A stretch of 1,250 nt of DNA from Escherichia coli. Lineage in GTDB: Bacteria; Pseudomonadota; Gammaproteobacteria; Enterobacterales; Enterobacteriaceae. The translations under genes were made by a program, and so were the position numbers. Of this stretch, positions 1 to 1,250 are shown one piece after another. The stretch is taken from assembly GCF_003334785.1 (NCBI RefSeq), contig NZ_QOWV01000064.1; one strand, given 5' to 3'. Numbering within the stretch: the stretch's first letter is position 1; each line of letters starts with the position of its first letter. A model generated the notes under the pieces. The model was not told where the DNA came from and ran no database searches. It saw only the letters and a program-made list of their open reading frames with translations.

Positions 1-503
1 CTGATTCGCTTCAGGGCTTCTTCTGCCGTCGCACTTTTGCTGCTGATGTATACATCGTGGATTTTTCGCCGGGCATGAGCCCAGCACGCAACTTCTGTCA
101 GCGCACTACCTTCACGTTCTGCACTGAACAGCCTGTCATAACCTGTGAACGCATCCGCCTGCAGGATACCCCGGAAGGGGCGGAGGTGTTGCTCCGGGTG
201 TTTCCCCTGCCGGTTCGATGAGTACGCGAACCAGACCGCCGGAGGAGATGACGAACCCGCATTGCGATCATCCCGGACATACGTCCAGATGCGCCCTGTT
301 TTCGTCTTTTTCAGGCCCGGTGCCAGTACCTTTACCGGTGTGTCGTCAGTGTGAAGCTTGCGGGTATTCATCACATAACGGTACAGGGCATCATTCAGCG
401 GCGTCATTAACTGGCAGCACGCGTCAACCCAGTTGGAGAGTAATGCACGGCTCAGTTCGACACCCTGTCGGGCAAAGATTTCACTCTGACGATACAGTGG
501 CAG
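1..503 (-). other. N-terminal part of the TnpC DDE catalytic domain (truncated by window edge)
   Basis: LPLYRQ (aa 216-221, plus 486..503), LHTDDTPV (D268/D269 at plus 342..347) and CWAHARRK (aa 355-362, plus 63..86) motifs. Catalytic-residue assignment is inferred from family knowledge, not verified by alignment. Confidence 0.55.
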
Positions 504-1148
504 GTGTTCGCAGTATTTTCCCGTTAACACGCGGGCAAGTAATCCGGGGCCCGCGATACCACGCTCTATCGGGCGGGACGGCGCCGGTGCTTCAACGATG
601 CAGTCACATTTTGTACAGGCTTTTTTTACCCGTTCTGTGCGGATCACTTTCAGGGCGCTGCTCACCAGTTCCAGTTGTTCTGCGCTGACTTCCCCCAGAT
701 AATCCAGCTCACCGCCACACTCCGGGCAACAGCTTTCTTCAGGCTCCAGGCGGTATATTTCACGGGGGAGATGTGCCGGTAACGGACGACGATGGCGCGA
801 CTGTCGCAACTGGCGGGGAACCAGCGGGTCATCCTCACGCCCACTGTAACGATCGCTTTCCTGCTCGCGTTGTTTCAGCAGGGCTTCAGCCTGTTCAACC
901 TCACGACGCAGTTTTTCAGAACGGGTTCCGAACAGCATCCGGCGCAGTTTTTCTATCTGAGCCCGCAGATGCTCTATTTCTCGCTCATCTTCTTCGATCT
1001 TTTCTTCGGCACGTGCCAGTGCAGAGCGCAGGAAGGCCTCCGTCTCTTCAACCAGACTCAGTTGCTGGTCTTTCTGACGGAGGGCTTCAGCCTGCTCAGA
1101 GAGCAGCCTTTCCAGCTCAGCGATGCGAATGAGGTATTTCTGACTCAT
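1..1148 (-). CDS. tnpC: IS66-family transposase TnpC (Orf3), N-terminal 382 codons; 3' end lies beyond the window start
   Basis: Manual minus-strand translation from ATG (plus 1146..1148) to position 3 gives 382 codons with no stop: MSQKYLIRIAELERLLSEQAEALRQKDQQLSLVEETEAFLRSALARAEEKIEEDEREIEHLRAQIEKLRRMLFGTRSEKLRREVEQAEALLKQREQESDRYSGRE...CCPECGGELDYLGEV...ACTKCDCIV...CEHLPLYRQSEIFARQGVELSRALLSNWVDACCQLMTPLNDALYRYVMNTRKLHTDDTPVKVLAPGLKKTKTGRIWTYVRDDR...ACWAHARRKIHDVYISSKSATAEEALKRI. The leucine-zipper-like N-terminus, Cys-rich zinc-finger, and the LPLYRQ and CWAHARR motifs are the signature of IS66-family TnpC (Pfam LZ_Tnp_IS66 / zf-IS66 / DDE_Tnp_IS66 architecture, recalled not searched). 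Absent from the supplied ORF track, presumably because it has no stop inside the window. Confidence 0.9.
   Translation of the reverse strand, partial: MSQKYLIRIAELERLLSEQAEALRQKDQQLSLVEETEAFLRSALARAEEKIEEDEREIEHLRAQIEKLRRMLFGTRSEKLRREVEQAEALLKQREQESDRYSGREDDPLVPRQLRQSRHRRPLPAHLPREIYRLEPEESCCPECGGELDYLGEVSAEQLELVSSALKVIRTERVKKACTKCDCIVEAPAPSRPIERGIAGPGLLARVLTGKYCEHLPLYRQSEIFARQGVELSRALLSNWVDACCQLMTPLNDALYRYVMNTRKLHTDDTPVKVLAPGLKKTKTGRIWTYVRDDRNAGSSSPPAVWFAYSSNRQGKHPEQHLRPFRGILQADAFTGYDRLFSAEREGSALTEVACWAHARRKIHDVYISSKSATAEEALKRI
600..731 (-). other. TnpC zinc-finger-like Cys cluster (C140/C141-P-E-C144 ... C178-T-K-C181-D-C183)
   Basis: Two CxxC pairs about 34 residues apart (CCPEC at plus 717..731; CTKCDC at plus 600..617), the arrangement expected for the IS66 transposase zinc-finger (zf-IS66). 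Read directly from the translation. Confidence 0.65.
621..627 (-). repeat. A7 homopolymer tract on the tnpC coding strand (T7 on plus strand), phased as A_AAA_AAA
   Basis: Plus 621..627 is ttttttt; the coding strand reads CGG GTA AAA AAA GCC (R-V-K-K-A, aa 173-177). Confidence 0.9.
864..1136 (-). other. TnpC N-terminal charged coiled-coil / leucine-zipper-like region (approx. aa 5-95)
   Basis: Translation is dominated by E/R/K/Q/A/L with leucines and isoleucines at heptad-like spacing (IRIAELERLLSEQAEALRQKDQQLSLVEETEAFLRSALARAEEKIEEDEREIEHLRAQIEKLRRMLF...LRREVEQAEALLKQREQE). Matches the leucine-zipper region described for IS66 transposases. Boundaries are approximate. Confidence 0.6.
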
Positions 1149-1178
1149 GGCCGTTTTTATAATGCGGTCAGGAGTTTT
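1149..1178 (-). promoter_or_regulatory. tnpB-tnpC intergenic spacer / tnpC translation-initiation region
   Basis: The 30 nt between the tnpB TAA and the tnpC ATG read on the minus strand AAAACTCCTGACCGCATTATAAAAACGGCC. No canonical AGGAGG-like Shine-Dalgarno lies 5-10 nt before the ATG. A/T-rich. Confidence 0.4.
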
Positions 1179-1250
1179 TTACAACATTGTCAGTGCGTTA
1201 AGGCGGGATGTTTTTGGCTGACGCCAGTCCAGCTTATCGAGGAGCATTGC
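1179..1250 (-). CDS. tnpB: IS66-family Orf2 (TnpB) C-terminal fragment, 23 codons plus TAA stop; 5' end lies beyond the window end. Unrelated to IS200/IS605 TnpB
   Basis: Minus-strand frame entering from position 1250 translates AMLLDKLDWRQPKTSRLNALTML followed by TAA (plus 1179..1181). The LLDKLDWR...LTML ending matches my recollection of enterobacterial IS66 Orf2 C-termini. Its position immediately 5' of tnpC on the same strand fits the canonical tnpA-tnpB-tnpC order. Confidence 0.8.
   Translation of the reverse strand, partial: AMLLDKLDWRQPKTSRLNALTML

Follow-up and report, generated by a model that had tools for sequence, protein, structure and literature searches.

What can be learned of an insertion sequence when only its middle part is in hand? 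The stretch of Escherichia coli DNA analysed here, called the window below, is 1250 bases long and holds the end of one gene and the larger part of another. To which element do they belong, what do they encode, and is the copy from which they come a whole one? Both genes lie on the minus strand, a point on which the earlier note, made from the letters alone, was silent. In the direction of the element, the window begins with the 3′ end of tnpB, an IS66-type accessory gene (1179..1250, minus strand): it has the last 23 codons (1250..1182), which translate from 1250 as ...AMLLDKLDWRQPKTSRLNALTML, and then the TAA stop (1181..1179), and this end is the same as the C-terminus of WP_000624688.1 from a sequence-identical copy, locus L001. 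Next comes a spacer of 30 nt (1149..1178, minus strand), AAAACTCCTGACCGCATTATAAAAACGGCC on the element strand, in which a strong Shine-Dalgarno match is absent; a gap of 30 nt between the two genes recurs in annotated copies, for example at 4073-4102 of L001. The rest of the window is tnpC, the gene for an IS66-family DDE transposase, of which codons 1-382 of 537 are present (3..1148, minus strand; ATG at 1148..1146). Its frame, 1148..3, runs through 382 codons without a stop or a frameshift, and bases 1-2 are a part of codon 383. An open frame of this length in 1250 bases is far above chance. What had been claimed of the genes inside the window, that tnpC is open over all 382 in-window codons and that the C-terminus and the stop of tnpB are well formed, is thus borne out. 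The forecast that 130-150 further codons of tnpC would lie outside was right in that the rest of the gene exists and too low in number: since the full TnpC is 537 aa, 155 codons lie beyond the window.

The domains of TnpC follow one another along the window from right to left, all encoded by the minus strand. The segment of residues 1-59 (972-1148) is charged and more variable, with the appearance of a coiled coil. Matches to ISEc8, ISEc22, ISKpn24 and ISCro1 in tblastn searches begin only at residue 60, about 59 N-terminal residues of the ISEc47 protein being not alignable with those of these elements, and therefore this N-terminus is specific to a group made up of ISEc47, ISEc23 and ISKox1. 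Then come the leucine-zipper/coiled-coil domain LZ_Tnp_IS66 at residues 60-130 (759..971; PF13007, E = 3e-12) and the zinc finger zf-IS66 at residues 138-182 (603..737; PF13005, E = 8.7e-12), whose cysteine pairs are in the motifs CPEC (717-728) and CTKC (606-617). The catalytic domain DDE_Tnp_IS66 covers residues 196-486 (PF03050, E = 3.1e-97), of which 187 residues, 196-382, are in the window (3..563). The last 104 residues of this domain and a C-terminal element are encoded beyond it, the latter being DDE_Tnp_IS66_C at residues 494-530 (PF13817, E = 7.9e-16).

Which residues of the catalytic domain may carry out the chemistry? Seven IS66-family transposases with 23-65% identity were aligned, namely TnpC of ISEc47, that of ISEc8, copies from a Pseudomonas phage, a Leptospira phage and a Streptococcus phage, and two copies from gut viromes. 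The only invariant acidic residues among them are D268 in the motif HTDDT (345..347, minus strand), D332 in ILQADAF (153..155, minus strand) and E463 in NNTAERALR, the last being encoded beyond the window. D268 and D332 are thus predicted to be the first and the second catalytic aspartates, and E463 the third residue of the DDE triad, a prediction that leans on their conservation and on general knowledge of DDE transposases. Between the second aspartate and the glutamate there is a CWAH motif (residues 355-358; 75..86, minus strand), which we take to be a signature of the IS66 family; C-[WM]-[AN]-H is kept in the aligned relatives except for the degenerate copy of the Streptococcus phage. In this phage, phiStag1 (L014:588-2016), the IS66 transposase is split, its LZ domain being a separate small ORF, and the region bearing CWAH is missing from the alignment; because of these two features it is probably a decayed copy.

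To which element, then, does the window belong? A megablast search of complete E. coli genomes found at least nine E. coli records, chromosomes and plasmids, that match the window at each of its 1250 bases (100% identity). In RefSeq, these records are annotated with "IS66-like element ISEc47 family transposase" (WP_000080164.1) and with IS66 TnpB. The window is almost certainly an internal piece of ISEc47, an insertion sequence of the IS66 family, and corresponds to the reverse strand of element positions 796-2045; the name ISEc47 is taken here from the product label that RefSeq gives to sequence with 100% identity, and is not the outcome of a comparison with the ISfinder reference. No observation speaks against this identification. 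No difference from ISEc47 as annotated by RefSeq/PGAP was detected, the window being identical over its 1250 bases and other records over the full 2541 bp. The family itself had been named correctly in the earlier note: in addition to the Pfam IS66 domains, the in-window fragment of TnpC scores 283.9 bits, and the full TnpC 450.5 bits, against NCBIfam NF033517 (transpos_IS66; cutoff 180), while the full TnpB reaches 119.1 bits with NF033819 (IS66_TnpB; cutoff 50). ISEc47 is an element already known and catalogued, of textbook IS66 organisation and very common in enterobacteria. Of 5426 complete E. coli genomes, 3235 contain sequence related to the window, at up to 46 places per genome and with many copies in several genomes, and such sequence also occurs in 2492 plasmid records, mainly of Escherichia and Klebsiella; a Salmonella plasmid codes for a TnpC that is 100% identical to that of ISEc47 by tblastn.

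Copies elsewhere make it possible to see the whole element. A base-by-base comparison of eight copies, seven with an exactly identical window and one, L003, with 99.9% identity, gives a length of 2541 bp. In the annotated regions around identical copies, tnpA, tnpB and tnpC follow each other in this order and in one direction; tnpA encodes a protein of 144 aa (L001:3291-3725) and overlaps by ATGA with tnpB, which encodes 116 aa. The termini of the element are GTAAGCGT...ACGCTTAC, a perfect match over 8 bp that becomes loose further in. These imperfect terminal inverted repeats, starting with 5′-GTAAGCG, are found in all eight copies as GTAAGCGTAAAGCC... on the left (IRL) and GTAAGCGTCAACGG... 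on the right (IRR). Classic IS66 members have been described as encoding TnpA and TnpB together with a DDE transposase, with an inverted repeat that begins GTAAGCGT, and the repeat of one member, ISPsko1, as GTAAGCGTCCGG...; the tip of ISEc47 is the same as the family tip quoted there (PMC12888890). Seven of the eight copies lie between perfect target duplications of 8 bp, and each duplication is of a different sequence (AATAAGAC, CCCGATGG, CTTTCAAT, GCTTATCC, AGATATGC, TTTACTAC and GTGAAACT). When the element and one repeat were deleted in silico at two loci, a hypothetical gene of a chromosome and umuC of a plasmid, the resulting 500-bp empty sites matched uninterrupted genes at 100%. The direct repeats and the matching empty sites together indicate that the examined insertions are simple ones with an 8-bp duplication. 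Copies elsewhere lie in accessory DNA and interrupt genes such as the plasmid umuC, an integrase gene of an island and other ISs. One strain also carries identical 2541-bp copies in both its chromosome and a plasmid, each at a site of its own, which points to a recent movement of this lineage, as far as can be read from the sequences. All that the earlier note proposed to look for in the element outside the window, tnpA upstream of tnpB, an open remainder of tnpC, terminal inverted repeats and an 8-bp target-site duplication, exists as predicted in sequence-identical copies elsewhere, the remainder of tnpC being interrupted in one of them and the duplication lacking at one of the eight. Its statement that nothing in the window departs from standard IS66 organisation agrees with both the family profiles and the tnpA-tnpB-tnpC layout.

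Does it follow that the window was taken from an intact, possibly active copy, as was concluded from its open frames? This step is not justified. Seven of the examined copies match the window at 100%, and two of these are broken by another IS that lies beyond it, one by ISEc45 in its tnpC and the other by IS1203 in its tnpB; thus an open frame within the window is no proof of an intact copy. On the chromosome of E. coli AF58 (locus L004, NZ_OZ547038.1), ISEc45 of the IS110 family splits tnpC after about codon 475, which is about 277 bp outside the edge of the window. On plasmid pWP7-S17-ESBL-04_2 (locus L005, 2501-6354), IS1203 has gone into tnpB, in its 5′ part and upstream of what the window covers. 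A copy that is pristine inside the window and dead by interruption, truncation or rearrangement just outside it is, therefore, a possibility to be taken seriously, which is more so as the copy in AF58 also lacks matching duplications. Against it, the full 2541 bp and a perfect duplication are seen in each of the other five of the seven and in the 99.9% identical L003. Judged from this small sample, a dead copy is the less likely state and the window's own copy is probably whole. In practice, the open frames in the window should be read with this caution; in a whole copy, the element should run on for another 795 bp past position 1250 and for another 496 bp past position 1 before it reaches its ends.

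The two broken copies have some features of their own. At L004 (2501-6488) the flanks of the element are ATTTGATG and TTTCATTC, and hence there is no duplication, and ISCro1, also of the IS66 family, adjoins; the unmatched flanks and this neighbour suggest a later rearrangement or a recombination between IS copies. L005 is a second ISEc47 copy on the plasmid of another examined copy, L002, and keeps a perfect 8-bp duplication (GCTTATCC); PGAP labels the remaining 98 aa of its broken tnpB as TnpB.

Other readings of the locus concern what surrounds the copy or what its genes are for. Might the copy be a part of a larger mobile unit? In Pseudomonas there are IS66 members that carry passengers, the 'tIS66' type, in which a passenger gene lies downstream of tnpC, as in ISPa75 with fosZ (PMC12888890), and the many copies in several genomes, up to the 46 places mentioned above, would offer material for a composite transposon bounded by two of them. 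In all eight examined copies, however, the right end comes about 30 bp after the tnpC stop with no passenger gene between, and no two of them were found to enclose cargo, so that a larger unit of either kind is very improbable here. That the window instead holds a domesticated, non-mobile transposase-like gene that is not part of any insertion sequence is practically inconceivable: nothing speaks for it except that the ends of the element lie outside the window, whereas the window is 100% identical in nucleotide sequence to elements that occur in many copies and possess inverted repeats, target duplications and matching empty sites. Another idea is that the surroundings of this copy are unusual or of consequence, which might mean that a neighbour gene is inactivated or activated or that a mobilised segment is bounded, or that the divergent TnpA of the clade of ISEc47 and ISEc23 marks a functionally distinct sub-group. 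We regard this as very improbable, and if it were true, the identity of the window as an internal piece of ISEc47 would stay as it is.

How divergent is this TnpA? It is short, carries a clear HTH_Tnp_1 domain of Pfam, and does not reach the curated cutoff of either NCBIfam model for IS66 TnpA (NF047595, 66.8 vs 74; NF038385, 61.9 vs 150), which is why its RefSeq/PGAP label is merely 'transposase'. It is a divergent TnpA, and the missed cutoff is not counted as family-defining. For TnpB, the difficulty is one of names. The ~116-aa accessory protein of IS66 elements shares only its name with TnpB of IS200/IS605, an RNA-guided nuclease, to which it is unrelated; a RefSeq note marks it so, and NF033819 is a distinct model. 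In the genome of Pseudomonas phage Marin (OR683406.1, L010:140-484), an IS66-type tnpB is annotated as 'transposon-associated TnpB endonuclease', which looks like a confusion of the two through the common name.

Among named elements, ISEc23 is the closest relative of ISEc47. Over the full 537 aa, its TnpC has 96.6% identity to that of ISEc47, with the same architecture, and the two differ in the remaining ~3.4% of amino acids and in being annotated under separate IS names. ISEc23 occurs on plasmids of E. coli as well as in lambda-like phages; in the genomes of lambda-like Escherichia phages there is an ISEc23-type copy with this 96.6% identical TnpC, and thus the IS lineage rides phages, too. 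ISEc8, ISEc22, ISKpn24, ISKox1 and ISCro1 have the same three-gene organisation and the same set of TnpC domains, with TnpC identities of 54-83%. In ISEc8, ISEc22, ISKpn24 and ISCro1, TnpC is shorter than that of ISEc47, the tnpC gene of ISEc8 being 1539 nt. The founding members of the family, IS679 and IS66, which were studied experimentally, reportedly have the order tnpA-tnpB-tnpC with an ATGA overlap that couples tnpA and tnpB (Han et al. 2001). They reportedly also have imperfect inverted repeats of the GTAA type and an 8-bp target duplication, as ISEc47 does.

How might ISEc47 move? TnpC would bind the imperfect terminal inverted repeats at their GTAAGCGT tips, probably via its zinc finger, with the coiled coil probably serving to make it a multimer. 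Cutting the ends of the element, and joining them to target strands cut 8 bp apart, would then be the work of the D-D-E site; the 8-bp duplication would arise from this stagger, and TnpA, with its helix-turn-helix, and TnpB would be required helpers. In IS679, tnpA, tnpB and tnpC are all reportedly required for transposition (Han et al. 2001), and it is by analogy with this that we infer the helper role of TnpA and TnpB in ISEc47, like that of the catalytic residues from their conservation; the three-gene requirement is functional data from IS679 and not from ISEc47, and the likeness between the two is drawn by description and not by sequence. Mechanisms of the IS66 family have been called "insufficiently characterized" (PMC12898284). 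In the literature that we searched, no study on the mechanism or the structure of IS66 TnpA, TnpB or TnpC turned up, and ISEc47 came up in one mention, within a list of ISs. A sequence search of the PDB found no solved structure related to TnpC and nothing meaningful for TnpB.

Does the window hold anything besides the two genes? A search with Rfam at a permissive threshold gave two chance-level matches only (E ~0.7, far below the gathering scores), and no tRNA or tmRNA gene was found in the window; none of its promoter-like or terminator-like sites is above shuffle expectation. An ORF of 156 aa is open on the antisense strand of tnpC (218-688, plus strand). Stop-free stretches of equal length appear in 139 of 1000 synonymous shuffles of tnpC, and this ORF is therefore rejected as a gene. 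The only repeats in the window are families of short ones of 12-18 nt, none of them beyond chance, and the clearest among them is an 18-nt direct repeat with 94% identity (880-897 and 1081-1098). It codes for EQAEAL twice, at TnpC residues 18-23 and 85-90, both in the N-terminal coiled-coil part of the protein, and is either a small duplication within the gene or a heptad-like repeat that arose by convergence.
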